A stretch of 64,000 nt of DNA, taken from contig DATDFB010000296.1 of the NCBI GenBank assembly GCA_036522835.1, positions 1,351-65,350 on the forward strand. Direction: 5' to 3'. The DNA comes from Thermoanaerobaculia bacterium (GTDB lineage Bacteria > Acidobacteriota > Thermoanaerobaculia > Gp7-AA8). Shown piece after piece: positions 6,001-58,952 of the stretch; within the stretch, counting starts at the first letter, position 1; every line of letters begins with the position of its first letter. A model generated the notes under the pieces. That model searched no databases, was not told the DNA's origin, and saw only the letters and a list, made by a program, of their open reading frames with translations. A program made the translations under genes and the position numbers.

Positions 6001-7175
6001 GTGATCGTGTTGCCGTTGAAGTTGGTCGCCGCCGTGCTGGTGTTGAGGAAGTTGATCGTGCCTTGGTTGGTGATGTCGCGGGAGATGGTTTTCACGGCGC
6101 TGGCCCCGATGTTCAGCACGCCGCCGCTGTTGATGAACAGCTGTCCGCTGCCCGAGATCGTGCCGTCGGTGGAGTTGAAATTGCCGCTCACCCGCACGAT
6201 TCCTGCGCCGGTGATCGTTCCTCCGGACAGGGTGACGTTGGTCCAGCTGACGTCGACGCCGGAGCCGGCATCGAACGTCGCGCCGCTGTTGACGGTCAGC
6301 GACGGGCTCCCCGCCGCCGTGAACGCGCCGGAGAAGTGGAGGGTATTGTTTCCGGATGCGACCGAGTAGGCGCCGTGCAGGGCCCCGCCGTTGTTGAGAT
6401 CGAGCCTGCCGGAGCTCACCTGGATCGAGGCGCCGCTGCCGTTGTTGACCGGAACGTTGATGGCCGCGGTGCCGCTGCCGGCGCTCTTCTGGATCACGCT
6501 GCCGCTGTTGTTGCTGATGAAAGAGCCCGTGCCCGAGGGATCGATGTTGTGGTCAGACTGAAGGTCGATCGTGCCGTCGTTGCCGAGGTGGGCACTGTCG
6601 AGCAGGAATCCCACTGCGCTGTTGCTCTGCAACGTAATCGTGCCGCCGGCGTTGTTGGTGACCGTGCGGGAGATGGTAATGACTGAGCCGCTGCCGGTGG
6701 ACCCGATGTCCAGATTGCCGCCGCTGTTGATGATCAGATTTCCGCTGCCGTCGATCGTGCAGTTGCCGTGAATACCGGCTGTTCCGTTCACGGTCAGATT
6801 TCCGGCGCCGTGCCAGATCCCGCCTGTAGGGTTCGCACCGACGAGGTTCAGCGTTCCGCCGGCGTCGATGGTGCTCGAGTTGGTCACGGTGAGAGCCTGG
6901 CCGCCCTCGACCCTGAGCGTTGCGCCGTTCTGGATCGTGATGCTCTTGACGGTCGGACTCGTCGTATCGACGCTGGCCGTGCCGGAGCCGGCGTTGGCGA
7001 TGATGACGTCGTCGCTGCTGGTGGGCAGTGAGCTGGGGGTCCAGTTGGAGGAATTGCTCCAACTGTCGTTGACGCTGCCGTTCCAGGTCTTCGTCGTACT
7101 GAAGGCAGGACAGGAAACCAGCACGACCGCCAATACAGCGGTGGCGCGCACGAAGGCACGAATGCGAATGCTCAT
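1..7175 (-). CDS. Giant secreted beta-helix / adhesin-like repeat protein, N-terminal part only (at least 2391 codons; runs off the left edge)
   Basis: Missing from the ORF track because this frame has no stop in the window. Hand translation of the minus strand from ATG at 7175-7173 gives MSIRIRAFVRATAVLAVVLVSCPAFSTTKTWNGSVNDSWSNSSNWTPSS. That is a signal peptide followed by the W-x-G...NW opening seen in autotransporter-associated beta-strand (PATR-like) proteins. Spot translations at 60-300, 2385-2445, 3541-3600 and 5470-5530 stay open and are G/T/S/N-rich (e.g. GGTLGGSGTLTLTNGGNWSGGTMSGSGTT). All listed minus ORFs in 1-7175 are in the other two frames. The plus-strand ORFs are P/V/A-rich mirror images. 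Confidence 0.8.
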   Translation of the reverse strand, partial: MSIRIRAFVRATAVLAVVLVSCPAFSTTKTWNGSVNDSWSNSSNWTPSSLPTSSDDVIIANAGSGTASVDTTSPTVKSITIQNGATLRVEGGQALTVTNSSTIDAGGTLNLVGANPTGGIWHGAGNLTVNGTAGIHGNCTIDGSGNLIINSGGNLDIGSTGSGSVITISRTVTNNAGGTITLQSNSAVGFLLDSAHLGNDGTIDLQSDHNIDPSGTGSFISNNSGSVIQKSAGSGTAAINVPVNNGSGASIQVSSGRLDLNNGGALHGAYSVASGNNTLHFSGAFTAAGSPSLTVNSGATFDAGSGVDVSWTNVTLSGGTITGAGIVRVSGNFNSTDGTISGSGQLFINSGGVLNIGASAVKTISRDITNQGTINFLNTSTAATNFNGNTITNTGTIDIQNGQGLLVSGGTPTINNNSPGVIRKTTNSAPMGIDLIVNNAAGATVETQIGHLYLNGGGTDSGIFSIFSGTQIRLGPNGNTFTMSGSATVTGANGTLAVVGATLDAGVNVTIPNLLLALGTITGAGTVQVSGNFTWSAGTISGSGTKVLTSTSTPTIDCSLGPCNLNGATLQLQATATLYSASSNALVMSNGASLILDPGKGLDVTNDGNFNDGGGAASSIVIGGPVMGFNALIRKWTTSGTSIINVPVTVSGSFLVETGTLRVTAGVTVVLATAILDYRPGATLEVAGGVFLINANGVSFPFSGDFKISGGTLRVPTGITASPKNVTLQTGGVIDGGGTLILSGTSTWSGGTMGSVTAAGGTTQINSGNTLSITAGGAQSLTQSRELINAGTINYAGTTVSPLTMSANGKITNNNAFNLTASSGNINLSAGALIENNGTITKTTGPGTTTISPPLDNKSGGTVSVSAGTIALAGGGTERGAFTVASGATLAFASGVFTMLGGPTIGGAGSVSISGATMDVGDGPGGGIDLLAITAPVTFSAGTVNVRDASLQNSSAFSVSGTIEHYGGHLSGNGTMTINSGGILNCRGTDSAAWIAINTTVNSGGRINFPSNAFGCGMFDAVTVTNDGTIDFQSDAGLSAFSGAPHIVNSTGTIKKSAGSGISVINIPTDSNGGSTLQADSGTLAFNQSGNFTSVTISGSSGIVALPATASVSGTTTLTGRLELTGNATLAGTLNAGGTLLLDNGVDVTWPNVSLTAAGSKIDGAGTLRVSGNFNWSGGTITGSGPRVMTGTSVPTISCSAGNCMLDGGTLRMQTFSTYSASSNALVFSNGATFILDPGQTIEVTNDGDFVDGGGAPSSIQIGGFAAGFNACIWKTTTSGTTVIGVPVTMSGSFLVQTGTLQVTAGVSVIANTAIVDYRPGATLELAGGVFLVNANGVSFPFSGDFKVSGGTLRVPTGITASPKNVTLQSSGVIDGGGTLILSGTSTWSGGTMGSATAPGGTTQVNSGNTLNVTGAAVSLAQGRNVLNNGTMNLTVDGNVNVSSGGTITNGGTLTKNGGSGTTTLFPTVNNTGTVAVTTGTLALAGGGSTASTYSISTTLALTGGTLTVANGSSVTGGGTLSIAGGTADVSSGANVTWSNVSLSSGTIGGAGTLHVSGNFTWAGGTISGSGPKVMDAASVPTISCSASNCALDGGTLQMQAWSTYSASSNALTFSNGGSLILDPGKVLFVSNNGNFVDGGGAASSITIGGFAAGFNGCIEKTTTAGTSTIGVPVTMFGSFKVVTGTLRVGAGVTVPAAGAIVHYDPGTTLELTGGVFLFNSSSVSFPANGDFKVSGGTLRVPTGIAIAPKNVTLQGGTIDGAGTLTLTGTSAWSNGTMGSATAPGGTTQIGSGNTLNITGGAVSLAQGRVLQNDGTLNLTVDGNVNVSSGGTITNNGTLTKNGGSGTTTLFPTVNSTGTVSATSGTLALTGGGSLGGNVVATSPAAIAFPSGTYSVAGAMSGTGTIALTGGAVTISSPFTIPTLSVTAGNATLDANGSANAFTMSGGTLGGSGTFTLTNGGTWSGGTMSGSGTTLNPTTKILGITAPVTLNTRTLQNDGTLSLGADISGSGTLANNGTLNAGANVTVGVLVNNGGQVATSNALSLSGGGTHSGGVFTATAPGSIAFSGGTHTLSGGGSIGGTGTVSFNGATATVGVPVNVATLSVTAGTAALDGTASASAFTMTGGTLGGGGTLTLPNGGTWSGGTMSGSGVTVNQAALGVTAPVTLGGRTLQNDGTLTLSANVAGNGTIANNGTLTTAADCSIGAIVNGAGAITTSNVLTLSGGGAYTGSLTATAPGTLAFGAGTHTVSGGGSIGGSGTLLFSGATATVGVPINVATLSVTGGTATLNAAAAADAFSMNGGTLGGSGTLTLTNGGNWSGGTMSGSGTTANPSSKTLSINGAVTLSGRTLQNAGTLSVNSAISGSGTIDNQGTVSAGAGATINAPMNNNGQ

Positions 7176-7231: not shown

Positions 7232-9784
7232 TTACTTCATCCTGTAAATGATTCGGGCACTGACCGTCCTGCCGGCCTGCAGGACGCTCGGCAGCGTCTC
7301 CGATCCCACCACCCAATACTGCTTGTTGAGAACGTTGTCGGCCAGGAGCTGCATCGTCACGTTCGGCAGGAGATCGCGGTAGGTCAGCGTCACGGCCGTC
7401 GTCGCGTAGGCGTCGACGGAGCGCACGCCGAGGAAGTCGGGATCGATGATGAAGCCCGTGCCCTGGCCGACCTTTCGGGCCCCCGAGTAGTGCGTCCGCA
7501 CCGCCGCCGTCAGCTGGCGCCACTCCGCGTCGACGCCGATGTTGAACTGATTTCCGGCCATGTTCGGCACGCGCACGATCTCGGTCTCGCCCGGAGTCAC
7601 CAGCGTCGGCACGCTCTGCACGGCCTGCGTGTGCGTGTAATTCGCCCAGAGCGTCGCGACGGAGAACTTGTGCCGGCCCGTCAGCTCTAGGCCGCGCACG
7701 TGCACCTGGTCGCGGTTTCCGTTCTGCAGGCAAGGGAAGGGGCACTTCGACGTCTCCGGGACCTCCGTCAAGGCGATCACGCCGCTGTAGTGGGACTCGT
7801 AGAGCGAGAGCTCCGTGGACGTCGACTCGTCCGGCTCCCATTGGCCGGAGAGCTCCGTGTTGCGCACGCGCTCCGGGCGCAAGTCGAAGTTGGTCGCCGA
7901 CTGCAGGCTGTAGCGGGGGAAGACATAGCCGCCGAATTTCTCCGTGTCCGTCGGATCCTTGAACGCCTCCGAATAGATCGCCTTCAGCACCAGATGCCGC
8001 TTGCCCGGCATGTAGATCACGCCGAGGCGAGGGGTGAAGATCGAGCCGAAGCCGGAGACTTCGCTCCGCTCGCTGTTGTTGATCTCGTTGTGGCTGAGCC
8101 GCCCGGCGGCGATGAATCGCAGCCACGGCCGCGGCTTCCACGAGCCTTGTCCCCACAGCGCGGCGTCGGTGTGGTAGTTGAAGCCGGAGTTGATGGCGAT
8201 CTTGCCGTCGACGAATTGATCGTATTGGGTCTGAATGGAGCTCTTGGCGAATTCGACGCCGGCCACGCCGCTCAGCGTCTCTCCCGGCTGAAAGGCCATG
8301 GTGATCTCGTTGCGGATCTGCGTCGAAAGGGCCCGGCCGTTGATGTGGAGCACGCTATCGTCGTTCGGCGGGCGATCCGGCGCATTGCACGACCGGCCGC
8401 AGAGGTCCCTGGCGTCGTTGTAGCCGTTCGCATACGTGCCGATGCTGTCGAATTCCGAGGCTTTGCGGTCGATGCTCGATTGCCGGTAGCGCGTGAAGAC
8501 GGTCAGCGTTCCGGCTGACAGGCGCGCCGAATAGCGGGCGTAGAGCGCCGTCTCCTCCGGCGTGTAGGTGGTGTTGCCGGCGAACGGGAGCGCGCCGTAC
8601 GCGGAAGCGACGCCTTCTTCGCTGCGCCACGACTGCAGTCCGAGCGTGAGATTGGAGACCTGCACCTTGGCGTTGATGCCCCAGTTCGTGGCCCGGTCGT
8701 CGAACCCGAGACGGTTCAGGGCGATGAACGCGGCGTCGGTCTGGCGCGCCAGCTCGACGCGCGACTGCGGGATGCCCAGCGCGGCGTAATCGACGTTGCG
8801 GTAGGTGTAGTCCCACGTGTCGAAGCCGGAGAGGTCGCGCTCTCTTCCTTTCTGAAAGCTTCCCGCCAGCGACCACGAGACCGCGCCGCCGCTGGCCGCG
8901 CCGGCCATGGTCATGTCGACCGAGCGGTTGCCGTAGCCGCCGGCCGTGGCGTGCCCGAGAAGGGCGAAGCGCTTCTCGCCCAGGAAGGTGCCGGCGTCCT
9001 TGGTGATCACGTTGATCACGCCCGTGTAGGCGTTCGCGCCGTACATCGTCGAGGCCGGACCGTAGATGACCTCGACGCGGTCGATGTCGGTGAGCGGGTA
9101 TTGCCGCGAGAGATACTCCGTCCCCTGCGTGAGGTCGTTCTGCTCGACGCCGTCGACGAGGAGCAGCAGGCGGCTGTTGAATTCGTCGTAGTAGCCGCGC
9201 TGGTAGACGTGCGCGTAGATGTCGCCGTTGGTGCGGTTGACGTCGAAGCCGGGGAGGTCGTGGAGGATCTGCTCGAGGTCGAGATAGCCGCGGCGCTCGA
9301 TCTCGTCGCCGGTGACGACGACGACGGTGGCCGGGGCCTCGCGCAGGCTCTCCGCGCTCTTCGACACGGACGTGACCTGCGTGGCCTGCTCCTCTTTCCG
9401 CACCTCGGACAGGAGCGCCGCGAAGCGCGCCGAGCCGGCGGTGTCGTCGAAGCCCGGCTCGATCCGGAGCAGCTTCGAGATCTCTTTGCGCGCTTCCTCC
9501 GGACGCTCGTCATACATGAGCGAGCGGGCCAAAAGCGACTGCACTTGAACCGAGACGGTGCGCGAGAGCTTGGCGTGCGCGCAATCCTGGCGCAGCAGCG
9601 CGGCCGCCTGCGCGAAGTCGCCGGCGTCGTAGAACCGCTGCGCCTGCAGCAGCGACGCCGTGCAGGCGTTTTGGGCCGCGGCGACGTGCGCGAGGAGGAG
9701 AACGGCCGCGGCGAAGCAGAAATAGATCCTTCTCCCCGCCGCCCGGGGAGAAGGTGCCGCGAAGCGGCGGATGAGGGGCGCCAT
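7232..9784 (-). CDS. TonB-dependent outer-membrane receptor with a roughly 100-aa TPR-like N-terminal extension
   Basis: This is the C-terminal 850 codons of ORF 7232..12586. Start ATG 9784 gives MAPLIRRFAAPSPRAAGRRIYFCFAAAVLLLAHVAAAQN (signal peptide). It is the only start codon upstream of the hydrophobic core. Plug-like region: SLREAPATVVVVTGDEIERRGYLDLEQILHDLPGFDV ... IDRVEVIYGPASTMYGANAYTGVINVITK. A long beta-barrel-like C-terminal part follows. Confidence 0.85.
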   Translation of the reverse strand: MAPLIRRFAAPSPRAAGRRIYFCFAAAVLLLAHVAAAQNACTASLLQAQRFYDAGDFAQAAALLRQDCAHAKLSRTVSVQVQSLLARSLMYDERPEEARKEISKLLRIEPGFDDTAGSARFAALLSEVRKEEQATQVTSVSKSAESLREAPATVVVVTGDEIERRGYLDLEQILHDLPGFDVNRTNGDIYAHVYQRGYYDEFNSRLLLLVDGVEQNDLTQGTEYLSRQYPLTDIDRVEVIYGPASTMYGANAYTGVINVITKDAGTFLGEKRFALLGHATAGGYGNRSVDMTMAGAASGGAVSWSLAGSFQKGRERDLSGFDTWDYTYRNVDYAALGIPQSRVELARQTDAAFIALNRLGFDDRATNWGINAKVQVSNLTLGLQSWRSEEGVASAYGALPFAGNTTYTPEETALYARYSARLSAGTLTVFTRYRQSSIDRKASEFDSIGTYANGYNDARDLCGRSCNAPDRPPNDDSVLHINGRALSTQIRNEITMAFQPGETLSGVAGVEFAKSSIQTQYDQFVDGKIAINSGFNYHTDAALWGQGSWKPRPWLRFIAAGRLSHNEINNSERSEVSGFGSIFTPRLGVIYMPGKRHLVLKAIYSEAFKDPTDTEKFGGYVFPRYSLQSATNFDLRPERVRNTELSGQWEPDESTSTELSLYESHYSGVIALTEVPETSKCPFPCLQNGNRDQVHVRGLELTGRHKFSVATLWANYTHTQAVQSVPTLVTPGETEIVRVPNMAGNQFNIGVDAEWRQLTAAVRTHYSGARKVGQGTGFIIDPDFLGVRSVDAYATTAVTLTYRDLLPNVTMQLLADNVLNKQYWVVGSETLPSVLQAGRTVSARIIYRMK

Positions 9785-9847
9785 TCTGCAGCGATCGCCC
9801 CTCACCCGGCGCTGCGCGCCACCCTCTCCCCGCAAGCGGGGCGAGGG
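9728..9847 (-). repeat. Composite palindromic (REP/MITE-like) element, copy A (three hairpins)
   Basis: Hairpins: ccttctccccg..cggggagaagg (9728-9754), ggatgagggg...cccctcaccc (about 9769-9806) and ccctctccccgc-aa-gcggggcgaggg (9822-9847). The same three hairpins occur in the same order, in opposite orientation, at 58826-58952. Confidence 0.65.
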
Positions 9848-9876
9848 ACCTTCGTCACGGTGACTCATGCAGAATT

Positions 9877-12800
9877 TCATTTCGATCCCAGCGCCGCGTT
9901 GGAGCATGGACTCTTCTCGGGGTATTGCTCGTCGGTGTAGCGGCTCCAGACTTCCTTGCTCAGCGGATCGAGCTTCGTGCTGCAGAGGTGCGCGGCCAGG
10001 ACGTCGGTGCGCGCGTCGGAGATGCGGATGGCCGGTTCCTTGCCGCCGGAGATGACGCCGCTGCCGTCGGCGTTGAACGCCACCGCCCACACCCATCCCT
10101 CCTGCCGGGGGAGCACCTGCGGCAAGGCTTCGGGCTTGCCGGTTTGCCACAGCCGGACCGTTCCGTCGGAGCTGCCGGAGGCGAAGACGCTGCCGTCCGG
10201 ACTGAAGCTGAGCGCGTTGACGCTGGCGCCGTGGCCGGAGTAGGTGAGCTCGGGCCCGTTTCGCAGCGGCGCGGCCACGATGCGTCCGTCCGCTCTGCCG
10301 CAGAGCAAACCGTTCCCGTTCGGCTCGAAGGCCAGGCTGCGGAGATCGTTCGCGTCCTTGCAGACGCGACGCGGCGGGGCATCCGGTTGGGCGACGTTCC
10401 ACAGCAACGCGCCCCCCGCCGGTTGGCTGGCGGCCACGCTCTTGCCGTCGGGGCTGAAGGCAACGGCGCGGACGCCGTTCTTGTTGTCCGCCGTGCGCAA
10501 CTGCCGCGGCGCGGCCGGATGGGCGGCGTCCCACAGCGCCACGGTGCCGTCGAGATTTCCGGCGGCGAGCAGCGATCCCTTCGATTGAAAGGCCAGCGAC
10601 ATCACCGCGGCGTTGCCGGCGGTGAGCTCCTGCGGCGCGGCGTTGCGGCTGCGGAGGTCGAAGAGCGCGATCTTGCCGGCGGCCGTGCCGGCGGCGAGGA
10701 GGTGGTCGCGCAACGCCAGCGTGCGCACCGGGCCGGCCAGGTGCCCGAAGGCCTTCGGCGGCAGCCAATGATCGCGGTCGTAGTCGTGGCGCGAGATCTG
10801 GCCGCTCTCGTCGCCGGCGAAGATGGTGCGGCCGTCGGGCGACACGGCGATGGCCAGCGCGCCATTCTTCTGCGGCAGCTTCTCGATGGTGTGCGACGGA
10901 TAGCGCGCGCCGACGGCGTGCATGGCCGCGAAGAGCTCCGCATCGCTCGGATCGCCGTGGTTCTCGCGGTTGAGGCGATACGCTTCGAGCACGAGGCGGA
11001 CGTCGACGCTGCGGGCCTCGCGCGAGGTCAGCGCCAGCGCGCGCGACGCCGAGAGGTGGCGCAGCGTCGTGGCCGTGTTGCGCTCCTCGTCGGCGCGGTC
11101 CCGGAGCGCCAGAGCCTCGTGCTGCGCCGCCTCGGCCATCTTGGCGCTCTCGCGCGCTTCCCGCTCGCTCTCGAGCGCTTTCCGCTGTTCGATCGTGGCC
11201 CGCTCGCGCGCGCTGTCGGCGAGCTTGCTCTGCTTCTTTGCGATCTCCGTCTGCGTCTCGGCGCGGACGCGCTGATGCTCGGCCTTCTCGCGCTCCTGCA
11301 CGGCCACCCTGCGCGCTTCTTCCGCGCTGCGCTTCTCGTCCTCGGCGCGGCGCTTCTCCAACTGCGCGCGCTTCTGCATGGCGTAGGCCCCTTCGCGCTC
11401 CTGCACCGCTTCGTACTGCGCCAGCTCCGCCGCGGTCTCTCCTCGCCACGCCTTGTAGCCGAGGTAGGTCATGAGCACGAACCCGGCCGAGAGGACGGCC
11501 AGGGCGATGCGCGAGCGCCGCAATTCGCGCCGGCGCCGCCGCTCGCGGGCCTGCGCTTTGTCGTCGCGCTCTTTCATGCTGGCGTCGAGGAAGGCCATGG
11601 CCGGCGCGAACGCCGGGTCGTAGCGGTCCGCCCACTCCGGCGTCGGCTTCTCTTTCTCGCGCCAGGTCAGCGCGAACTGCAGCTCCGGATCGCGCCACAG
11701 CGCCACGCGGCCTTCCGCGTACCGCTGCGCCGCCTGGGCCACGTTGAGATAGAGCTGCCCGGCGTGCGCTTCGTCGTCGGCCCACTTCGACAGCCGCGAC
11801 CAATTGCGCATCAGGCTCTCGTGCGAGATGTCGATGATGGAGCTGTCGTCGATCTCCACGTCCGCGGGCGGCATGAGGAACGAGCGGCCGGCGCGGCGGA
11901 AGCTCTCCGTCACCTGCGCGATCTCGCCGAGGCTGGCCTGCGACACCGCGCGGATCTCGCGCACCGAGGCGGGGCGCCGCACGCCGCGCGGATCCGAGGC
12001 CTTGTCGGTCAGCACCTTGAACATCTTCTCGGCGATCAACTGCCCGAGCTGGTCGAGCTCCCCGAAGGCCTCCTCGGCGTGCCGCGACAGCGCCTCGCGC
12101 ATCGTGCCGATCTCCTCGTAGTGGCGGAGGTCGAGCGGCTCGCCGGGCCGATGGCCCGACTGCCAGCGCTCCCACGTGCGCATCAGCGCGTGCTGCAGGA
12201 TGGGGAGCTGGTCGGGATCGTCGCCGACGTCGTTGAGGAGGCGCGACACCAGCCGCGGCGCGATCGTGGCGCCGCCCACGGCCACGGGGCCGGTGATGGC
12301 GCTGCGCAGCTCGTCGCGCGTCAGCCGCGGGACGAGATAGATCCCTTCGTTGAGCACCTCCGGCAGCGTGCCGAATTCCATGCAGTCGCCGATGAAGTCG
12401 GAGCGCATGGTGATGGCGATGTAGATCGGCACGTCGCTCTCGCGCGCCGCCAGGAGGAGCTTGACGAACGCCGCGGCATCGTCGCCGACGGCGCGGCGGC
12501 TGCGCTTGTAGCGGAAGATCTCTTCGAACTGGTCGACCAGGACCAGCACGTTGTCGGCCGCGCCGGTGTGCGACTGGCGCACGCACTCGACCAGGCCGAG
12601 GCGGCTGGCCCGCAGCGTCGTCTCGAACAGAGCGCGAGTGAGCGTTTCGTCGCTGCCGCTGCCGAGATCATCGGGAACGGTGAGCGCCGCGGCCAGATTG
12701 CCGATGGGGTCTTCGCCCGGACGCATCATCGCTACGCGCCACCGCGAGCCGGCGCGCGTCATCGCCCCGCCGTAGAGGCTGGGAATCAGACCGGAGCGGA

Positions 12801-13011
12801 CCAGCGACGACTTGCCGCTGCCGGAGCGGCCCAGGATGGAGAGAAAGCGCGTCGTGCGCAGCCTCCGCAGCAACTCGTCCGTCTGCCGCTCGCGCCCGAA
12901 GAAGAGATAGTCCTCGTCCGGCTCGAACGGGCGCAGTCCGGGGAACGGATTGACATCCGCCGTCGGATCGAGGCCGATGACGATGCCCGACGAGCCGGTG
13001 CTGGTTCTCAC
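9877..13011 (-). CDS. STAND-type P-loop NTPase (nSTAND/NACHT-like) - TM helix - coiled coil - 7x WD40 repeat protein (1044 aa)
   Basis: In frame with ORF 9877..14592. The GTG start at 13011 overlaps the TGA of the upstream TIR gene (GTGA). N-terminus: PFPGLRPFEPDEDYLFFGRE. Walker A: GRSGSGKSS. Walker B: VLVLVDQFEE. Hydrophobic helix: RIALAVLSAGFVLMTYLGY (aa 500-519). A roughly 130-aa E/R/K/A-rich coiled coil follows. WD40 blades include VNALSFSPDGSVFASGSSDGTVRLWQ and VRAVAFSPDGKSVAAS. Confidence 0.85.
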   Translation of the reverse strand: MRTSTGSSGIVIGLDPTADVNPFPGLRPFEPDEDYLFFGRERQTDELLRRLRTTRFLSILGRSGSGKSSLVRSGLIPSLYGGAMTRAGSRWRVAMMRPGEDPIGNLAAALTVPDDLGSGSDETLTRALFETTLRASRLGLVECVRQSHTGAADNVLVLVDQFEEIFRYKRSRRAVGDDAAAFVKLLLAARESDVPIYIAITMRSDFIGDCMEFGTLPEVLNEGIYLVPRLTRDELRSAITGPVAVGGATIAPRLVSRLLNDVGDDPDQLPILQHALMRTWERWQSGHRPGEPLDLRHYEEIGTMREALSRHAEEAFGELDQLGQLIAEKMFKVLTDKASDPRGVRRPASVREIRAVSQASLGEIAQVTESFRRAGRSFLMPPADVEIDDSSIIDISHESLMRNWSRLSKWADDEAHAGQLYLNVAQAAQRYAEGRVALWRDPELQFALTWREKEKPTPEWADRYDPAFAPAMAFLDASMKERDDKAQARERRRRRELRRSRIALAVLSAGFVLMTYLGYKAWRGETAAELAQYEAVQEREGAYAMQKRAQLEKRRAEDEKRSAEEARRVAVQEREKAEHQRVRAETQTEIAKKQSKLADSARERATIEQRKALESEREARESAKMAEAAQHEALALRDRADEERNTATTLRHLSASRALALTSREARSVDVRLVLEAYRLNRENHGDPSDAELFAAMHAVGARYPSHTIEKLPQKNGALAIAVSPDGRTIFAGDESGQISRHDYDRDHWLPPKAFGHLAGPVRTLALRDHLLAAGTAAGKIALFDLRSRNAAPQELTAGNAAVMSLAFQSKGSLLAAGNLDGTVALWDAAHPAAPRQLRTADNKNGVRAVAFSPDGKSVAASQPAGGALLWNVAQPDAPPRRVCKDANDLRSLAFEPNGNGLLCGRADGRIVAAPLRNGPELTYSGHGASVNALSFSPDGSVFASGSSDGTVRLWQTGKPEALPQVLPRQEGWVWAVAFNADGSGVISGGKEPAIRISDARTDVLAAHLCSTKLDPLSKEVWSRYTDEQYPEKSPCSNAALGSK

Positions 13012-14492
13012 GATGCCGCTCCGCGCGCCTTGGCGATGGCCTCGAGCAGCGGCGCGAGCGCCGCGGGATCGAAGCCGCCGGCCGGCTCGTGCACGAGGAT
13101 GGCCTCGTGCGTGCGGAAGCGCTCCTTCTGCGGCGTCGACGGCGCGCCGACGTAGATGCCCCGCGCCAGGAGCGGCCGCTCCCGCCCCAGGGCCGCGCTT
13201 TTCTGCAGCTCGCGCAGCTTCCGCCGCAGCCAGAGCTCGTCGCCCGCCCCGTAGTAGAGGAGGACCGCGTCGCAAGCGCGGAGGTTCTCCTCGTGCTCGA
13301 GCCGCGCCTGCGCTTCGTCTTCGTCGAAGAAGGGGAGGATGACCTCGTAGCCGGCGCCGAAGAGGTAATCCTCGAGCGGATGCGTGGCTTCGACGTCCCC
13401 TTGATCGCAGAGCAGATAGAGCCGCGGATGCTCCTCCTGCGTCGGAATGGAGGCGGCCTTCACCGCCGCCGGCGGCGGGGGAGCGAGCTTGCGGTAGATG
13501 ATCGACTTCAGATCCTCGATCGGAACTTCCAGCAGCTCCGCCGCGGCGTGCACCGTCGGATCGGTCTGGAGGTGGTTGACGAAGTTTCTCTGGCGCTCGT
13601 CTTCGATGTCGGTCGCCGACGAGAGCCAGATGACGCTCGACAACTTCGTTCCTTTGGCGATCTCCGACGCGAGCGTCTGCTGCCGCTCCACGATCGAGAC
13701 CGTCGCCCCCTCGGGCACGATGCCGTAGTTGCGGCCGACCAGGTGGATCGACACTCTGCTGCGCGCGAGCTGCTCGCGCACCATGGCGTCGAGGTCCGGC
13801 GCGACGAGGGGGAGGGCCCGGTCGGGCAGCACTTCGTACCCATTGCGGATGAGATCGCGCTTGATCGCCTCGCGCTCCTCGCGCAGCTCGTAGCTCGTCT
13901 CGGCCAGATAGAGCGTTCCCTTCGGCTCCGCCGGCGTGGTGGTCACGGCGTCGTTGTTCATCGCGTCGAGGAGCTGGGCGATGTCGTAGGCGAGGTCGTC
14001 GAGCTTGGTCAGAAACGCTCGCTCTTTGCCGTAGTCGCGCGACAGCTCCCGCGGCCGCCCGCTCTCGTCCTGAACGAAGAATTCGTAGCCGAGCATCGGC
14101 TGGACTTCCTCGGGGAGCCGCTCGAAGTTGACCGGCGTCTTGACCACCTTGAAGATGCGGGCCTTGTCGCCGATGCGCACGCCGCCGGTGCGCTCCGCGG
14201 CGCGGCAAAACTCTTTGAGCTCGCGGTTGCACCACTCGGACTGCACGTAGCGCGGCGAGAGGATCGACACCAGCGCCGCGATGCGCGGCAGCCGCTCCAT
14301 GATCGTGTCCGAGAAGATGTCGTTCCCTTGCAGCTTCAGATCGCGCCAGATCCTCGGTTTTTCCCCTCGTACCTGGGCCACGCGGATCTCCAGCAGCCGG
14401 TGCAGCTCGGAGACCCATCCGGGCTCGTCGGCGATCAGGGCTTGGTCGTCGATATGTGCATAGCTGATGAAGAAGTCGTGCTCGAAGGGCAT
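13008..14492 (-). CDS. TIR-domain protein followed by two further TIR/DUF4062-like alpha/beta modules (494 aa)
   Basis: ORF 13008..14492. N-terminus: MPFEHDFFISYAHIDD. TIR signature: LSPRYVQSEWCNRELKEF, with Glu91 at the position of the TIR NADase catalytic Glu. Second module: TLYLAETSYELREEREAIKRDLIRNGYEV (DUF4062-like S-x-x-L-x-x-E-R). Third module: RLYLLCDQGDVEATHPLEDYLFGAGYEVILPFFD. Confidence 0.85.
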   Translation of the reverse strand: MPFEHDFFISYAHIDDQALIADEPGWVSELHRLLEIRVAQVRGEKPRIWRDLKLQGNDIFSDTIMERLPRIAALVSILSPRYVQSEWCNRELKEFCRAAERTGGVRIGDKARIFKVVKTPVNFERLPEEVQPMLGYEFFVQDESGRPRELSRDYGKERAFLTKLDDLAYDIAQLLDAMNNDAVTTTPAEPKGTLYLAETSYELREEREAIKRDLIRNGYEVLPDRALPLVAPDLDAMVREQLARSRVSIHLVGRNYGIVPEGATVSIVERQQTLASEIAKGTKLSSVIWLSSATDIEDERQRNFVNHLQTDPTVHAAAELLEVPIEDLKSIIYRKLAPPPPAAVKAASIPTQEEHPRLYLLCDQGDVEATHPLEDYLFGAGYEVILPFFDEDEAQARLEHEENLRACDAVLLYYGAGDELWLRRKLRELQKSAALGRERPLLARGIYVGAPSTPQKERFRTHEAILVHEPAGGFDPAALAPLLEAIAKARGAAS

Positions 14493-14666
14493 GGATCGTT
14501 TTGGGAACCACTAAAGGAGTGACGCCGGGGGGTGTTTCCCTACCCAAATAATCGTCGGCGGGCTCATGGATGAACCCCCCGACAAACGGCACCAGGAGCT
14601 CCTCCGAACGCGTCGCCGTCGCCGTCGATCGGATCCGGCATTCCGTATATGGGAAAACGGCGCTGC

Positions 14667-14701
14667 GTAATAAAATGCGCCGTCGTCCGTCAATCCCTTA
14701 T
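14667..14701 (+). promoter_or_regulatory. Conserved AT-rich leader/promoter box upstream of ELW gene 1
   Basis: gtaataaaatgcgccgtcgtccgtcaatcccttat-ATG. The same box lies at the same distance upstream of ELW2 (19371-19404) and ELW4 (29167-29200). TAAAAT stands out in a high-GC context. Confidence 0.4.
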
Positions 14702-17700
14702 ATGCGCAGGCTCCTTTCCCTCGCACTCCTCCTCTGCTCGTTCTCGGCCTCGGCGCAGACGCCGTATCTGGTCAAGGACATCAACACGATCACGAGCGCG
14801 TCGCCGACGTCGTCGACGCCGACCGGCTTCTTCGTCTCCGGCTCGCGCATCTACTTCGGCGCGGTCACGGCCGACGGCGGCACCGCGCTCTGGGCGACGG
14901 ACGGCACGGCCGCCGGCACCGTACAGGTCGCCGGCTTTCCGCAGAGTTACGCGCCGTTGATGCCGTCGCGGTTTCTCGCGCTCAACGGCAAGGTCGTTTT
15001 CAACGCCAACGACTACGCCCATGGCGAAGAGCTGTGGATCACCGACGGCACGAGCGCGGAGACGCGCCTCCTCGCCGACATTGATCCAGGTCCCGCCGCC
15101 TCGAGCCCCGGCGACCGCATCGTCTACCACGGGAAACTGATCTTTGCCGCCGGCAACGACCTCACCGGCCGCGAGCTGTGGATCAGCGACGGGACGGGGG
15201 CGGGCACGCGGTTGCTGAAGGATCTGGTGCCGGGGACGGGCGGCAGCGACCCGAATGGTTTCACGCTGCTCAACGACGTCGTCTACTTCGGCGCCGCCAA
15301 GGGCTTGTGGAAGACGGACGGCACGGAGGGCGGCACGGTGCTGGTGAAGGCGACCGACAAGGTCTCCGACATGGCCATCGTCGGTTCGCGCCTCTATTTC
15401 CGCGATTTCAACACGATGTGGACGAGCGACGGAACGGAGGCGGGAACGCAATCGCTCGGCACATTCACGGCGATTTATCTGGGCGGGCTCACGCCGTTCG
15501 GCGACAAATTGATTTTCGAAGCCGTCGCGCCGCCGTTCGGCGGCGAATTCTGGATTACGGACGGCACCGCCGCCGGAACACACGTGATCCGCGATATCGA
15601 GCCAAACTCCTCGTCGGTGGCGCAGGTCGCCTTCACCACCGTGGTCGGCAACGTCGCCTACTTCTCCGCGTTCACCATCGCCAACGGTCAGGAGCTTTGG
15701 AAAACCGACGGCACCGAGGCGGGGACGGCGCTGGTCAAAGACATCAATCCGGGCAGCGGCGGCAGCGGCGCCGCGCCGCTGTTCGCCCTCGGCGGGAAGC
15801 TCTATTTCGCCGCCAGCAGCACTACCCCCACCAACTCCAGCAACGGTTTGGCGCGGACGTTGTGGGTCACCGACGGCACGGCCGCCGGAACGCGGCAGGT
15901 GAGCAGCGGGGGGCGGCCGGTCGGCGTGAGTGTGGCGTTCGACGGCCGTCCCATGGTGGCCAGCCTCAACGGCGTCTTCTACTTCGCCGGCGCGGGTGGC
16001 TTGAACGGGTTCGAGCTGTGGCGGAGCGACGGCACCGACGACGGCACGTACCAGGTCGCCAATCTGACGTCCGACGATCCGCCGTCGTCGTATCCGCGCA
16101 ATCTCGTCGCCGCCGGCGACTGGGTCTACTTCGAAGCGTGGGACGGTCTCGGCACCTCCACCCCCGTCACCTCTTCCTTCTTCGATCTGCCGCGAGCGCT
16201 CTGGCGCAGCGATGGTACGGCCGCCGGAACGCTCCCGCTGACGGACCTGCCGCCGCCCTTCGCCACGTACTTCCCGGCATCGGGACACACGCTCTACTTC
16301 ACGAAAGGGAACGTCCTCTGGAGCAGCGACGGCACGCCCGAGGGGACGGCGCCGGCGACGGCGATCGTCAACCGCTTCCCGAAACCGCCGGGGTCTTTTT
16401 TCGTCGTCGGCGACAAGATCTTCGCCAGCATCTCCGATGCCTCGTTTCAGAACAGCCAATTGTGGGCGACGACGACCGCGCCCGACGCTCCGGCCGTGGC
16501 GCTCGGCGTGCCCGGTGTATTCACATTCATCGACGTTGCCGGCCGGGCCATGTTTGCCGGCAACTCCATGGTCGGTGTCAGCGACGGCACGCCGGCAGGC
16601 ACGACGTTCGCGATTGTGCCGAACCTCGGATCCGTCGACGCGACGAGCCTCACCGTTGTCCGCGGGCAGTTGTACTTCGTGAGCGGCGGGAACCTGTGGA
16701 AGAGCGACGGCACCGCGGGCGGCACCACGATCGTGAAGAAGGTCCCCGACGGTACCAAATCTCTCGTCGCCGCGGGGAAGCAGCTCTTCTTCGTCGGCGC
16801 GGCTGAGCTCTGGGTCAGCGACGGCACGGACGCCGGCACGCACTCGCTTGGCGTGAAGTCGCTCGCGAACGTCGCCGCCGTGGGCGACCGCGTCGTCTTT
16901 TCGAGCAAGGATTCGGCGAACGGCGAGGAGCTGTGGGTGAGCGATGGCACCGCCGAGGGGACGCACTTCCTGCGCGACCTCCTGCCTGGCGCGTTCGGTT
17001 CGTTTCCGACGGATTTCACGAGCATCGCCGGCTCCGTCTATTTCACCGTCCTGGCCGGCTCGTCCACGTACGGATCGGTGTGGGTGACGGACGGCACGGC
17101 GGAGGGGACGAAGCTCGCCGCGGCGGTCGAGCCCGGAAAGGGCTCGGGCACACCGCCGGCCTACACGAAAGCGGGAGAGCGCATCTTCTTCAGCGGAACG
17201 ACGCCGTCGGCGGGCACGGAGCTGTGGGCGATCCCCCTTCCGCCGTCGCCGCGGCTGAGCATCAACGATGTCCGCGTGACGGAGGGGGATGCGGGGACGG
17301 CCACGGCGCGCTTCACCGTGACGTTGTCGCCGGCGTCGGCGCAGAGCGTCACCGTCGACTTTGCGACGTCCGACGGCACCGCCTCCGCCGGCAGCGATTA
17401 CGACGCCGCCTCGGGCACGCTGACGTTCGCGGCGGGAGAGACGTCGAAGAGCGTCGACGTCCGCGTCCGCGGCGACGCCGACCTCGAGAACAACGAGACC
17501 TTCTTCGTCACTCTGCGCAACGCCGCCGGCGCCTCGCTGGAGAAGCCGCTCGGCTTCGCCGTCATCGACGACGACGACCTGACGGCCGACCTGTCGCTGT
17601 CGCCGGACTTCGTCAGTTGGGGCGACACCAGCGTCGTCATCGCCGCCGCCAACGCCGGTCCGGTGACGGCAAACGGGATCGCCGTGCAGACCACGATCAC

Positions 17701-18748
17701 GCCCGTTCCCGACGTACCGGGCAGTTGCTTGCCTTGCTCGAAGCCGCCGCTCCAGATCGCGGCGGGCGCGTCGGCGAACGTCGCCGACTATCGCTGGTAT
17801 TCGTTCCAGCAGTACGTGACGGCCACGGTCACGGCGTCGCAGAGGGATCCGCAGCCGTCGAACAACAGCACGGGCTTCATCACCGCCGCGCACATCGGAC
17901 TCGATGCGCTCTATCTGACGCCGGGGGCGCAGGCCAACGCCTGGATCTACAGCACCTCGACCGCGCCGAGTCTCACGGTCACGTCCTCCGACCCGGGCGT
18001 GATCTCCGTTCCGGCCACGACGACGTTCACGCAATTCAGGTCGTCGAAGTTCACGGTACGCGGCGCCGGCGTCGGCACCGCCACCATCCGCGTGGCCGAC
18101 GGCGCCACGACCGTCGGCACGCTCACGGTCGACGTCGTGGCCGCGGGAACGAAGCCGCGCTTCCCCGGCGGCGTGAAGTTCTCCGCCGACGCCGCCACGG
18201 CCTTCGATCATCCGGCGACCGTGACGGTTCAGGTGCTGGGCACGGCGCCGTACAGCGGCGCGCACGCCACCGGCCTGGTGACGGTGACGGAGAACGGCCG
18301 CGAGCTCGGACGGACGACGCTCAGCGGCAGCGCGCAGCCGTCGACGCTGCCGGTGTACGTGAGCGACGTCGGCGCGAACGCGATCGTCGTCAACTATGCC
18401 GGCGACGCGAACTTCCTTCCGAGCACGGCCACGCTCAGCGTAGCGGCGTCGTCCGGCTCCGCCACGATTCTGGCCGCGCCGGAGCGAAGCGGGACGACGG
18501 CGACGATCCACGTGACGGTCGCAGGCTCGCCGGCGGCCGCGCCGACCGGCACGATCAGCATCAGCGAGCCGGGCGTGGTGCCGTCCCAGCAGCAGACGCT
18601 GAGCGCCGGGAAGGCCGATTTCACGCTGACGAATCTCGCCGACGGCATGCACACGTTCGTCCTGGCGTACTCCGGCGATTCACGCTATCGAAGCGGCAGC
18701 CAAACCCTGCGGCTGCCGCCGCCGCGCGGGCGCGCGGCCAGGCATTAG
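14702..18748 (+). CDS. ELWxxDGT-repeat exoprotein with Calx-beta, CARDB/DUF11-like and Ig-like (Big) domains, paralog 1 (1348 aa)
   Basis: ATG 14702 is in frame with ORF 14570..18748. It opens the signal peptide [29 protein letters not shown], which the paralogs share. About 15 G.ELW.(T/S)DGT..GT repeats. Calx-beta signature: [63 protein letters not shown], then VIDDDD. Ig-like tail: [24 protein letters not shown]. Confidence 0.9.
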   Translation: [1348 protein letters not shown]

Positions 18749-22400: not shown

Positions 22401-23460
22401 TCCCAGCGCCGCCACCAGCATCGTGGTGAAGATCACCTCGGCGCCGGCAGGGCCGGCGTGCACCACGTGCTTCATTCCGCAGCTCGCGTCGGGTCAGTCG
22501 CTGGAAACGCTTGTCGCCAGCGGCTCGACGTACCTGAGCGCGATCGTGACGGCGCACGAGCGCGACCCGCAGACGGCCAACAACGCCACGAGCTGGATCT
22601 TCAACGATGGTCACCGCATGGTCATGACCCCGGCCTTCCTCGTCACCGGCGGCACGGGCACGGTGACGGCCGTGTTCGGCGCGCAGAATCTCACCGCCAC
22701 GTCCTCCGATTCCTCGGTCGTCTCGGTCGGTGCGGTGACGAAGTTGCCCGACAACCTCGGGACGTTCAAGGTCACCGGATTGAAGCCGGGGACGGCGACG
22801 ATCAATGCCGGCATCGGCCAGATGACCATCACCGTGGTGGCGCCGGGCACGACGCCGCGCTTCCCGGGAGGGATGACGATGACGGTCGACGAGGGGAACC
22901 ACTTCTTCGATCTTCCGCTCTACGTCAGGATTACGCCGACGGGAACGGCACCCCTCACCGGCATCACCGCCACGGGCACGGTGACGGCGGCGTTCGATGG
23001 ACAGGAGTTGGCGAGCGGCAACGTCAGCGGCGGCACGATCGTGCTGCCGGTCTATCCGCGCGCGGTCGGCCTCGTCCCGTATCAGCTCGACTACGCCGGC
23101 GACACGAATTTCCTCCCGCAAACGGTCACCGGAAAAATCTCCGTGCTCAAGGGACATGCGACGCTGAAGGCGACGCTGGAAGCGGTGCCGGGAGCGGCGG
23201 GTACGTTCACACTCTTCGTCCAGGCCACCGGCTCGCCGCTCACGCCGCCGGGCGGCACGCTGTCGGTTCTCAACGGCACGACGGAGATCGCCAAGGTGAC
23301 GCTCGCTGCAGCGGGCGGCGTCGCCCTGGCCAGCGCCACGCTCACGAATCTGCCGGCCGCGCCGACGCTGACGATCAACTATCCGGGCGACGCGCTCTAC
23401 CAGTCTGCATCGCAGCAGGTGCGCGTCGTCGTGCCGCGCGGGCGCACCGTGCGGCACTGA
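19405..23460 (+). CDS. ELWxxDGT-repeat / Calx-beta / Ig-like exoprotein, paralog 2 (1351 aa)
   Basis: ORF 19405..23460. Signal peptide: [31 protein letters not shown]. About 16 ELW.(T/S)DGT repeats. Calx-beta: [56 protein letters not shown]. Ig-like modules: [26 protein letters not shown]. Confidence 0.9.
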   Translation: [1351 protein letters not shown]

Positions 23461-53172: not shown

Positions 53173-53736
53173 GTGAGCAGTAATCCCGTGCTCCGCGGCG
53201 CCACGTACGAAGACCTGCTAAAGGTTCCGGAGAATCTCGTCGCAGAGCTCATCGACGGCGAGTTGTACACGTGGCCGCGGCCGGGATCGCCACATGCCCG
53301 CGCAGCGACATTGCTTGGCGGCGTCTTAGCGACACGTTTTGATCAAGGTGATGGCGGGCCGGGAGGGTGGTGGATCGTCGATGAGCCCGAACTGCACTTG
53401 TCGGGCGTCTATGTTCCCGACATGGCGGGTTGGCGGCGCGAACGCATGCCCGAATATCCGAATACCTCGGGTTGCACGATTCGACCGGATTGGGTTTGTG
53501 AAGTTCAGTCGCCGAGCAATGCTCGTCACGATCGCGTGGTCAAACTGCCGAAGTACGCCAAGGACGGGATTCCGCACGTCTGGCTACTCGATCCACGAGC
53601 TCAAACGCTCGAGGTACTCCGGCTCGAAGAAGGACGGTGGATCGTGGCCGGCAACTACGGCGGCGACGACAAAGTTCGCGCAGAGCCGTTCGATGCAATC
53701 GAGATCGATCTCGCGGCGCTCTGGCTTCCGTCCTAG
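53173..53736 (+). CDS. Uma2-family (DUF820) putative endonuclease
   Basis: ORF 53173..53736. Motifs: AELIDGELYTWPRPGSPHA, PDMAGW, PDWVCEVQSPSN, KLPKYAKDGIPHVWLLDP. Confidence 0.75.
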   Translation: MSSNPVLRGATYEDLLKVPENLVAELIDGELYTWPRPGSPHARAATLLGGVLATRFDQGDGGPGGWWIVDEPELHLSGVYVPDMAGWRRERMPEYPNTSGCTIRPDWVCEVQSPSNARHDRVVKLPKYAKDGIPHVWLLDPRAQTLEVLRLEEGRWIVAGNYGGDDKVRAEPFDAIEIDLAALWLPS

Positions 53737-58872: not shown

Positions 58873-58952
58873 GGGGCTCGAGTTGGGAAGCATGCGCCCC
58901 TCATCCGGCCTCGCTCCGCTCGGCCACCTTCTCCCCGCAGGCGGGGAGAAGG
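58826..58952 (+). repeat. Composite palindromic (REP/MITE-like) element, copy B
   Basis: Hairpins: ccctctccccgc-tgc-gcggggagaggg (58826-58852), ccgggtgagggg...cccctcatccgg (about 58866-58908) and ccttctccccgc-ag-gcggggagaagg (58927-58952). It is the inverse of 9728-9847. Confidence 0.65.

Follow-up and report, generated by a model that had tools for sequence, protein, structure and literature searches.

To our knowledge, the characterised STAND/NLR-like defence proteins of bacteria (Avs, bNACHT) sense phage proteins in the cytoplasm, and we know of only a passing suggestion in published work that some NACHT proteins with a transmembrane helix might read membrane or periplasmic cues. The nSTAND1 clade is defined as a conflict-system NTPase in the text of PMC8195603, and TIR, CHAT and SLATT partners as well as WD40 and TPR sensors are given as standard for conflict systems in the text of PMC7159879. 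DUF4062 has been demonstrated experimentally to be a TIR-like NADase effector, Avs and NLR-like proteins included (10.64898/2026.05.01.722283; 10.64898/2026.09.04.749371). This NADase occurs in Swarozyc, Evangelion, Vulcan, Vesta, some Avs proteins and human TEP1 (three 2026 preprints), and combined DUF4062/NIR-STAND architectures are known from bacteria and from NWD1, NWD2 and TEP1 (2026 preprints). Here we analyse a locus of three linked genes in a soil acidobacterium (Thermoanaerobaculia bacterium, contig DATDFB010000296.1), located in a stretch of 64,000 nucleotides that we call the window. Gene A encodes a protein with TIR and DUF4062 domains, gene B an nSTAND1 NTPase with a membrane helix and a WD40 propeller, and gene C an outer-membrane protein resembling a TonB-dependent receptor (TBDR). 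The reading we favour, which we consider somewhat probable, is an envelope-spanning, NLR-like (STAND) alarm module composed of an outer-membrane barrel, a periplasmic sensor, a cytoplasmic NTPase and a TIR/NIR NADase; we infer an immune role for it.

The nearest described proteins are Avs with an N-terminal NIR/DUF4062 domain (PsAvs2) and TIR-bearing bNACHT, in which an NADase-type effector, a STAND NTPase and a C-terminal repeat sensor are combined in the same tripartite manner. Fused relatives of the 494-aa module of gene A share this layout, and DUF4062 depletes NAD+ (10.64898/2026.09.04.749371). The locus differs from Avs and bNACHT in that its three-domain effector is a separate protein, its NTPase belongs to nSTAND1 and not to the Avs or NACHT type, its sensor lies beyond a transmembrane helix and is predicted to be periplasmic, an outer-membrane barrel gene is attached, and no defence island is seen here. 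The nSTAND1 systems of Kaur, Burroughs, Iyer and Aravind belong to the same clade (PF20703) and share TIR, CHAT, kinase, FGE/FGS, SLATT and WD40/TPR components; however, as described in the text of PMC7159879 and PMC8195603, they use effector-associated-domain adaptors, EACC1 and cytoplasmic sensors, unlike the module studied here. The text of these two papers, figures and supplements aside, mentions neither a TonB-receptor or outer-membrane-barrel partner nor a 494-aa TIR-DUF4062-X protein. More generally, the text of the literature, again apart from figures and supplements, gave no account of the three-domain effector, of an N-in/C-out nSTAND1 protein with an alanine-heptad stalk, or of outer-membrane coupling. 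A first-pass annotation of this DNA had called the module undescribed, which is overstated insofar as nSTAND1 (PMC8195603) and the DUF4062 NADase (2026 preprints) are already known components.

Three further systems deserve a comparison. FecA-FecR-FecI resembles the locus in two respects: in front of the TonB-box position the TBDR has an additional periplasmic domain at its N-terminus, and the gene next to it codes for an inner-membrane protein that crosses the membrane once, N-in/C-out, and could take up a signal through its periplasmic part. On the other hand, the extension of gene C is not an STN domain, the partner is a STAND-WD40 protein and not an anti-sigma factor, and the output is TIR/NIR and not a sigma factor of the extracytoplasmic function (ECF) type; sigma and anti-sigma domains were not found in the cassette or in the annotated neighbours of its relatives. 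NWD1, NWD2, TEP1 and Apaf-1 show the same order of TIR-like NADase, STAND and WD40 as presumed receiver (10.64898/2026.05.01.722283), but here the NTPase clade is different, the three-domain effector is a protein of its own, and the sensor is membrane-anchored and predicted to be extracytoplasmic. Thoeris and SLATT-linked systems share a TIR protein as a possible signal generator, and in some related loci a SLATT/DUF4231 gene with two transmembrane helices stands upstream of the TIR gene. In contrast to Thoeris, a ThsA-like gene (SIR2, Macro, TM-SLOG) was not found in the cassette and the ThsB models gave no match; in contrast to SLATT-linked systems, a SLATT gene beside the operon is absent in this window.

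The pairing of the TIR and STAND genes goes far beyond chance. One genome per GTDB species was scanned, which gave at least 252 stretches with full-length relatives of gene A, and the best 80 of these (44-87% identity) were kept. The carriers among these 80 include all classes of Acidobacteriota as well as Cyanobacteria, Bacteroidota, Accumulibacter, Methylomirabilis, Dormiibacterota and Anaerolineales. An nSTAND1 gene (53-86% identity) lies downstream of the TIR gene on the same strand in every one of the 79 species loci with downstream DNA, and directly adjoins it except in L070, L077 and L079. A 4-nt overlap (ATGA, GTGA or TTGA) joins the two genes in about 45 of 81 loci; at most of the remaining junctions the distance is between -23 and +20 nt. 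In the window, the TGA stop of gene A (13010-13008) shares bases with the GTG start of gene B (13011-13009), and a GGAG is read 7 nt upstream of this GTG. The two open reading frames (ORFs) of the first-pass annotation, the motifs it quoted and the GTGA overlap it noted are all found at the places it gave, and both ORFs are on the minus strand. Its further idea of a split effector/sensor pair, for which it named conservation of the two neighbours across genomes as a check, agrees with the 79 of 79 loci from several phyla and with single-chain fusions: P0388 (1880 aa) and P0301 (972 aa) begin with the 494-aa module and pass directly into nSTAND1 at around residue 501, and P0388 ends in a CHAT domain.

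Relatives of gene A form at least 1222 clusters at 50% identity (E<=1e-30), mostly of 480-520 aa. Genes A and B each have thousands of homologues, the closest of which are found in metagenome-assembled genomes (MAGs) of Thermoanaerobaculia (Acidobacteriota). In other proteins the 494-aa module is fused to a Ser/Thr kinase, N- or C-terminally, to CHAT, or to an nSTAND2-like ATPase with TPR (P0242, P0304, P0367, P0246, P0384). Since it is found in kinase, CHAT and nSTAND2-TPR fusions, the sequences suggest that the TIR-DUF4062-X module is a portable effector cassette. The TIR-STAND pair is also present in cultured organisms, namely Chryseosolibacter histidini PWU4, Stenomitos frigidus ULC18, Scytonema sp. 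PCC 10023 and Brasilonema sp. CT11. The STAND frame is interrupted or shortened in six loci (L015, L035, L044, L060, L061, L070), and in L060/L061 the gene of a small barrel protein is split as well; these may be pseudogenes, or assembly or frameshift errors of the MAGs.

Judged from gene order, the unit comprises three genes, TIR, STAND and TBDR, which read as a minus-strand operon at 7232-14492. Thus, of the two-gene module proposed in the first-pass annotation the A/B pair stands, but its size does not, as gene C belongs to it too. In annotated contigs of close homologues, the TIR, nSTAND1-WD40 and Plug/TBDR genes follow in a row with a 4-nt overlap at each junction, and this row holds in two diverged cassettes that have wholly different flanks. 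The two cassettes come from one MAG, because P0048 and P0119 carry the same locus-tag prefix in NCBI (JO093), and at least 3 MAGs have two diverged paralogous cassettes per genome. Among the 58 loci with at least 1.2 kb of DNA after the STAND gene (L009 was assigned to the TBDR group by hand), an outer-membrane barrel gene follows directly in 41, namely a TBDR in 25 and a small outer-membrane protein in 16; the STAND-TBDR junction is a 4-nt overlap in about 16 loci. The type of STAND protein tracks the partner: loci of the WD40 type have the TBDR, while those of the TPR type have an unrelated protein of about 385 aa (16 loci, mostly Terriglobia-like). The latter has a signal peptide, a weak match to Phenol_MetA_deg and a C-terminal ...EYRYSF, in which we would see the hallmark of an outer-membrane barrel; a sequence search of the PDB with this protein gave no match. 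As two unrelated outer-membrane proteins occupy the same operon slot, this arrangement argues strongly for a function at the envelope.

The linkage was also approached from the opposite side, by querying JGI metagenomes with the N-terminal extension of the receptor only. Upstream of the receptor, WD40 repeats were found in 55 of 67 testable loci, nSTAND1 in 46 of 53 and the TIR protein in 35 of 45. A distant clade without the TIR gene (L147, L148, L151, L158, L163, L164; 39-62% guanine plus cytosine) keeps the STAND domain, the transmembrane helix, the alanine-heptad stalk, the WD40 repeats and the receptor; its NTPase is 43-46% identical, its STAND protein has no extra N-terminal domain, and its genes lie among those for a sulfatase, an ABC transporter and STAS proteins. 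Because this clade has the STAND-TBDR pair and no TIR gene, we regard the STAND protein as the hub, whose partners on either side are facultative. Conservation is far higher in the cytoplasm than in the periplasm and the outer membrane: identity in the distant tier is 79% in the NTPase, 43% in the WD40 region and 35% in the stalk, and the TBDRs are 30-74% identical.

The topology of gene B supports the same picture. The nSTAND1 model (PF20703) scores 324 bits on the protein and covers profile positions 1-373 of 379, and G61, S63, G64, G66, K67, S68 and D160-E164 are invariant among the homologues. Pfam WD40 repeats span residues ~700-1025, and the propeller is modelled by AlphaFold2 with 28 strands, i.e. 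seven blades, at a predicted local distance difference test score (pLDDT) of ~90; the HEAT-ARM_XIII model of PADLOC-DB v2 also matches this region. The architecture listed in the first-pass annotation, with its Walker A and Walker B motifs, an NTPase, a transmembrane helix, a coiled coil and about seven blades, was found as quoted, and the STAND and WD40 profile searches it had proposed both gave matches. The helix itself was thus seen earlier, but what it implies, a WD40 sensor in the periplasm, was not part of that annotation. In almost every complete homologue a hydrophobic helix (Kyte-Doolittle 1.7-3.0) is found at the same place, right after the NTPase. The 20 residues before the helix contain more lysine and arginine than the 20 residues after it in 71 of 71 homologues (means 7.8 and 3.8), so that by the positive-inside rule the NTPase should be cytoplasmic and all C-terminal parts extracytoplasmic; a single-span helix places the two ends of the protein on opposite sides of the membrane. 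Cysteines of the WD40/C-terminal region behave as pairs, in counts that may hold few independent events because the sequences are related: C884 and C904 are both present in 23 homologues, both absent in 15 and never found alone, while for C1010 and C1036 the counts are 34 homologues with both, 3 with neither and 1 with a single one. Such a pattern would be expected of disulfides in an oxidising compartment. The C-terminal part varies among homologues between WD40 (7 to ~16 repeats), TPR, PD40 (TolB-type) and coiled coil only, and the helix and the charge bias point to a periplasmic location of the WD40/TPR sensor.

Between the helix and the propeller lies a stalk in which alanine recurs every 7 residues (521-647) and the other registers are polar. 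Column conservation is 0.90 at the alanine register as opposed to 0.37-0.63 in the other registers, and the same periodicity is found in distant homologues with only 43-46% NTPase identity. The stalk is rich in Ala, Glu and Arg, and Pro and Gly are absent between 541 and 686. With 127-145 helical residues at 1.5 A per residue it would be about 19-22 nm long, which is roughly the width of the periplasm. In composition and layout it is similar to domain II of TolA; the succession of transmembrane helix, long Ala/Glu/Arg helix and globular head is like that of TolA as a whole.

The effector protein is predicted to be a cytoplasmic NADase or signal-generating effector. Its AlphaFold2 model, built with 43 homologues, has a mean pLDDT of 72.7 and contains three separate Rossmann-like alpha/beta domains. 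The N-terminal domain is a TIR domain by several measures. TIR_2 (PF13676) matches residues 7-100 with 44.8 bits (cutoff 28, E 2.2e-11), W87 and E91 of the W-x-x-x-E motif of helix alphaC are invariant in the 43 homologues, and the motif SEWCNRELKEF aligns with the TIR chains of TLR1/6, RPS4 and RUN1. Foldseek against the PDB gave RPP1, RUN1, SNC1, SARM1 and SPARTA TIR-APAZ as the best specific matches, with E-values of the TIR matches from 1e-5 to 3e-3, and the SAVED_TIR model of PADLOC-DB v2 matches the domain with E 6e-4. The FxsC family (NF040588 of NCBIfam) scored 52.8 bits, below its cutoff of 130, indicating no more than a relation of the N-terminal TIR-like part, and Thoeris ThcB4 scored 11.9 bits against a cutoff of 220 (NCBIfam).

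The second domain is matched by DUF4062 (PF13271) at residues 195-271 with 27.1 bits, which is marginal against the cutoff of 24.7; the match recurs in precomputed Pfam assignments of gene A homologues and in the fusion proteins. Q271/Q272, W289 and D298 are invariant in the 43 homologues. In tested DUF4062 proteins the catalytic Glu lies about 100 residues into the domain (E98, E103, E108; 2026 preprints). By position alone, the invariant D298 and the mostly conserved E297/E299 lie near the expected Glu. A sequence search of the PDB with this domain found no relative. The third domain has no Pfam family match; its segment ELWLRRKLRELQK resembles the alphaC motif of TIR, with K425 at the position of the Glu. 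The alignments of the three domains are too shallow (effective number of sequences, Neff, ~1.5-1.9) for their profile-profile comparison with hhalign to reach significance, and for this reason we do not claim three TIR domains. Where the first-pass annotation had spoken of a multi-TIR protein with a canonical TIR and Glu91 at the NADase position, the canonical TIR with its Glu91 is therefore upheld, and so is the DUF4062 match it had suggested looking for, while the other two domains are DUF4062/NIR and a domain with no family match and Lys in place of Glu, so that multi-TIR holds only in part.

Gene C is matched by Plug (PF07715, E 7.7e-21) and by TonB_dep_Rec_b-barrel (PF00593, E 4.4e-32). 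Its N-terminal extension of ~90 aa with two conserved cysteines is private to the operon-linked TBDRs and is not matched by Pfam STN (PF07660). Between this extension and the plug the operon-linked TBDRs share a highly conserved stretch, QVTSVSK..ESLREAPATV. V102, S103 and K104 of the motif at the TonB-box position are invariant in the TBDR alignment (A5), and TQVTSVSK was matched by hand, starting from the plug match, to ETMVVTA of CirA. At the other end, the operon-linked TBDRs lack the customary aromatic residue at the C-terminus; their last strand, ...GRTVSVRMIY, runs into a short tail of 2-10 residues (RLK, RMK, GMK and others; window 7232-7270).

If the parts work together as an alarm module, we speculate that a trigger at the outer membrane or in the periplasm, be it a ligand, phage or bacteriocin on the receptor or damage to the envelope, would alter the contact between the N-terminal extension of the receptor and the WD40 propeller. 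This change could be relayed through the stalk and the transmembrane helix so that the NTPase is released and oligomerises in an NTP-dependent manner, as in STAND/NLR proteins. The oligomer would gather the co-translated TIR/NIR protein and thereby turn on NAD+ cleavage. The outcome might be NAD+ depletion and growth arrest, or an ADP-ribose-derived signal, which in related loci could act on the neighbouring SLATT membrane protein and open it. Around the STAND protein as hub, the TIR effector is found in most lineages and not in all, and so is the outer-membrane barrel. In this scheme the periplasmic WD40 head, its contact with the receptor extension, NTP-dependent oligomerisation and activation of NAD+ cleavage are inferred. 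It is also possible, though we hold this only tentatively, that the locus is a trans-envelope NLR in which the outer-membrane receptor is a guarded entry port or decoy, so that attack is detected at the cell surface. Seen as a guard, the periplasmic WD40/TPR head would sense a phage, bacteriocin or other attacker on the receptor, the alanine-zipper stalk would pass the signal on, and the NTPase would fire the TIR/NIR NADase before or during crossing of the envelope.

Several points weigh against an alarm module. NADase activity, topology and the WD40-TBDR contact are predictions, AlphaFold2 confidence is modest in the TIR domain (pLDDT 50-78) and low in the NTPase and the first half of the stalk of gene B, and the co-occurrence of cysteines may stem from a single loss or a handful of losses on the tree. 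Neither partner is obligatory: 17 of the 58 loci have no outer-membrane partner and show unrelated neighbours instead, about 12 of the 67 loci found from the TBDR side have no STAND gene upstream, and the TIR gene is missing from one clade; in the window itself, a REP-like insertion parts genes B and C. The surroundings are housekeeping DNA (SMC, an aminotransferase, phosphatidylserine decarboxylase and pyrophosphatase), and the defence-island location that the first-pass annotation had raised is not borne out by the window. No system of PADLOC-DB v2 matches gene A or gene B, with none of the Avs, NACHT, Thoeris or other system models reaching E<=0.1 and SAVED_TIR and HEAT-ARM_XIII as the only hits, and the NCBIfam scan of both proteins names no system either; this agrees with the earlier statement that the pair fits no named defence system. 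Searches of phage records, IMG/VR and plasmids gave no full-length relatives, the sole plasmid match being partial and 24% identical, and conservation is unusually high for a defence gene (65-87% identity in the 120 best gene A matches). Much of this would suit the main rival, a non-immune and non-lethal signalling at the cell surface, in which the TBDR binds or imports a nutrient or senses an envelope cue, the STAND protein takes a role like that of a FecR-type anti-sigma factor, and TIR/NIR makes a nucleotide second messenger that tunes physiology. The layout of a TonB-dependent transducer, with an N-terminal extension and a single-pass N-in/C-out inner-membrane partner, is in its favour, as are the housekeeping context, the absence from the mobile-element collections searched, the high sequence conservation, the pairs of diverged paralogous cassettes in at least 3 MAGs and the STAND-TBDR pairs without a TIR gene. 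However, the characterised prokaryotic uses of TIR, DUF4062 and STAND-repeat proteins that we found, in the text of PMC8195603 and PMC7159879 and in the 2026 preprints, all belong to conflict or abortive infection; genes for SLATT, patatin, CHAT and TIR-FGE proteins have been recruited in related loci; and an output through a sigma factor or transcription factor was not found in the cassette. We think surface signalling rather unlikely, even as the foremost competitor.

An ordinary cytoplasmic two-gene antiphage pair of the Avs/bNACHT kind, in which the helix serves only as a tether or fails to cross the membrane, WD40 detects a phage protein in the cytoplasm and the TBDR is a mere syntenic neighbour, seems improbable to us. 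It could account for TIR-nSTAND1 pairs without an outer-membrane gene (17 of the 58 loci, cyanobacteria included) and for the fused protein P0388, which by eye has no obvious hydrophobic helix after the NTPase, and WD40 and TPR are classic cytoplasmic sensors of STAND proteins (Apaf-1, Avs). It is nevertheless hard to square with the topology and with the third gene: the helix is conserved across phyla with its positive-inside bias in 71 of 71 homologues, with a single span the N- and C-terminal ends must lie on opposite sides, cysteines are present or missing in pairs, two unrelated families of outer-membrane barrels use one slot, often with 4-nt overlaps, the co-occurrence is reciprocal when started from the TBDR side, and PADLOC gives no Avs or NACHT match. 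We give very little credence to a transport or structural accessory, with the STAND protein as a TolA/TonB-like partner whose NTPase powers the receptor and the TIR protein as a later add-on. The transmembrane helix, the long Ala/Glu/Arg-rich helix and the C-terminal globular domain do mimic TolA, the conserved QVTSVSK sits where TonB would bind, and STAND-TBDR pairs without TIR exist. Yet STAND NTPases are switches and not motors (Leipe et al. 2004, cited in PMC8195603), most loci (35 of 45 from the TBDR side) have a linked TIR gene, and the small barrel of the TPR-type relatives has no plug to operate.

The coordinates of the locus are collected in Table 1. The junction of genes B and C is peculiar to this window: where orthologous loci have a 4-nt overlap between STAND and TBDR, a REP/MITE-like element (repetitive extragenic palindrome/miniature inverted-repeat transposable element) is found. 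Its palindrome, CCCTCTCCCCGC-NN-GCGGGGAGAGGG, occurs twice per element, ~94-100 nt apart, and the element twice in the window (palindromes at 9728-9754 and 9822-9847, and at 58826-58852 and 58927-58952); the motif has 7 matches in the window with 0.53 expected. The insertion is no part of the conserved module, and this copy seems to encode part of the n-region of the gene C signal peptide. For the start of gene C we prefer ATG 9784 to ATG 9880, an alternative that overlaps the STAND stop, because the latter would put 32 residues encoded by the REP-like insertion in front of a normal signal peptide. A scan for consensus promoters and terminators gave no match above chance.

Table 1. Positions of the three genes, their domains and junction elements in the window
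Feature	Position	Strand	Basis or remark
Gene A, 494 aa, ATG start	13008-14492	-	ORF; Pfam TIR_2 + DUF4062; AlphaFold2; Foldseek
Gene A domain 1, aa 1-180, canonical TIR	13953-14492	-	TIR_2; E91 invariant; motif alignment
Gene A motif SEWCNRELKEF, aa 85-95	14208-14240	-	Glu91 codon 14220-14222
Gene A domain 2, aa ~190-340, DUF4062/NIR-like, TIR-related	13473-13925	-	PF13271; pLDDT 80-89
Gene A domain 3, aa ~355-494, alpha/beta, candidate NTPase adaptor	13011-13430	-	AlphaFold2 beta-alpha-beta, pLDDT ~85
GTGA stop/start overlap, genes A/B	13008-13011	-	read from sequence; ~45/81 related loci alike
Gene B, 1044 aa, GTG start	9877-13011	-	ORF; Pfam; homologues; AlphaFold2
nSTAND1 module, aa 22-433, predicted cytoplasmic	11713-12948	-	PF20703 E 2e-96
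Walker A GRSGSGKSS, aa 61-69	12805-12831	-	invariant core
Walker B LVLVDQFEE, aa 156-164	12520-12546	-	invariant core
Single transmembrane helix, aa 502-519, after RERRRRRELRRSR	11455-11508	-	conserved position; charge bias
Predicted periplasmic helical stalk, aa 521-665	11017-11451	-	Ala every seventh residue, ~19 heptads
Seven-bladed WD40 propeller, aa ~706-1000, predicted periplasmic sensor	10012-10896	-	Pfam; PDB WD40 matches; AlphaFold2
REP/MITE-like palindrome pair between genes B and C	9728-9847	.	second copy pair 58826-58952
Gene C, 850 aa, TonB-dependent-receptor-like outer-membrane protein	7232-9784	-	Pfam; PDB plug matches; kept downstream of STAND
Gene C signal peptide	9674-9784	-	precedes N-terminal extension
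Gene C N-terminal extension, aa 38-128, helical, TPR-like by eye	9401-9673	-	alignment of operon-linked TBDRs
Gene C motif TQVTSVSK at TonB-box position before Plug	9359-9382	-	positional correspondence
Gene C Plug	9017-9346	-	Pfam; aligns with PDB CirA, BtuB, PhuR
Gene C barrel	7331-8656	-	Pfam TonB_dep_Rec_b-barrel

On the far side of gene C lies a giant, repeat-rich, adhesin/autotransporter-like gene with a signal peptide, which runs on the minus strand from ~7175 to beyond the left edge of the window (window 1-7175; >2390 aa); its syntenic counterpart in L001 encodes 3495 aa and has a Pfam CLIPPER match. Divergent from the TIR gene, after a spacer of 77 nt, follow plus-strand tandem paralogues of ~1350-1390 aa (14570-18748, 19405-23460, 23473-27531 and 29201-33304) with ELW-x-[ST]-DGT repeats, Calx-beta and Big_3_5 Ig-like domains. 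Neither the giant gene nor the ELWxxDGT genes were accepted as members of the module, given that the paralogous cassette has entirely different flanks. AhpC, PAP2 and a protein with a beta-lactamase fold are also encoded in the window. We do not count as defence genes the PADLOC hits there to ATPase-type models (mad3, LmuB, AriA and GajA; E as low as 8e-62); most likely they stem from the SMC_N protein (Pfam E 1e-65), which we take to be the 1195-aa ORF at 53733-57320.

In other genomes the genes around the pair are, judged by their domains, of the kind usual in nucleotide-centred conflict systems: 13 loci, cyanobacteria included, have SLATT/DUF4231 immediately upstream of the TIR gene, 13 have TPR-S with RyR or cyclase, 7 have TIR-FGE-sulfatase and 3 have LSDAT SLOG, and patatin is seen as well. 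Wider conserved neighbourhoods are seen in Terriglobia-like loci (L048, L052, L062, L049, L056, L057, L066, L082), in cyanobacteria (L053, L055, L065) and in L068, L077 and L084. They contain TPR-S genes (some with RyR and guanylate-cyclase), TIR_2-FGE-sulfatase, a 94-aa ORF, SLATT/DUF4231, patatin and LSDAT_prok SLOG, and may be multi-gene nucleotide-signalling islands. Another group of genes follows the paralogous cassette in L004/L005 (17346-21256), beside the TBDR: a small precursor-like gene (weak Frankia_peptide and NHase_alpha matches), YcaO and a ThcOx/nitroreductase gene, which together look like a cluster for a ribosomally synthesised and post-translationally modified peptide (RiPP) of the thiazole/oxazole type.

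The family may offer a concrete and widespread test case for STAND proteins that face the envelope, as it joins an N-in/C-out STAND protein and a stalk of periplasmic length with two unrelated outer-membrane partners. The TIR-STAND core can be tested in the cultured carriers. The effector, with TIR, DUF4062/NIR and a third domain, enlarges the repertoire of NADases, its activity being predicted, and the TIR-less STAND-TBDR clade raises the question of other outputs under a STAND switch. If the reading as an alarm module is true, NLR-type switches would be able to relay a signal across the inner membrane, and the biology of TonB receptors, as entry ports for phages and bacteriocins and as devices of surface signalling, would be linked to NAD+-based effectors.

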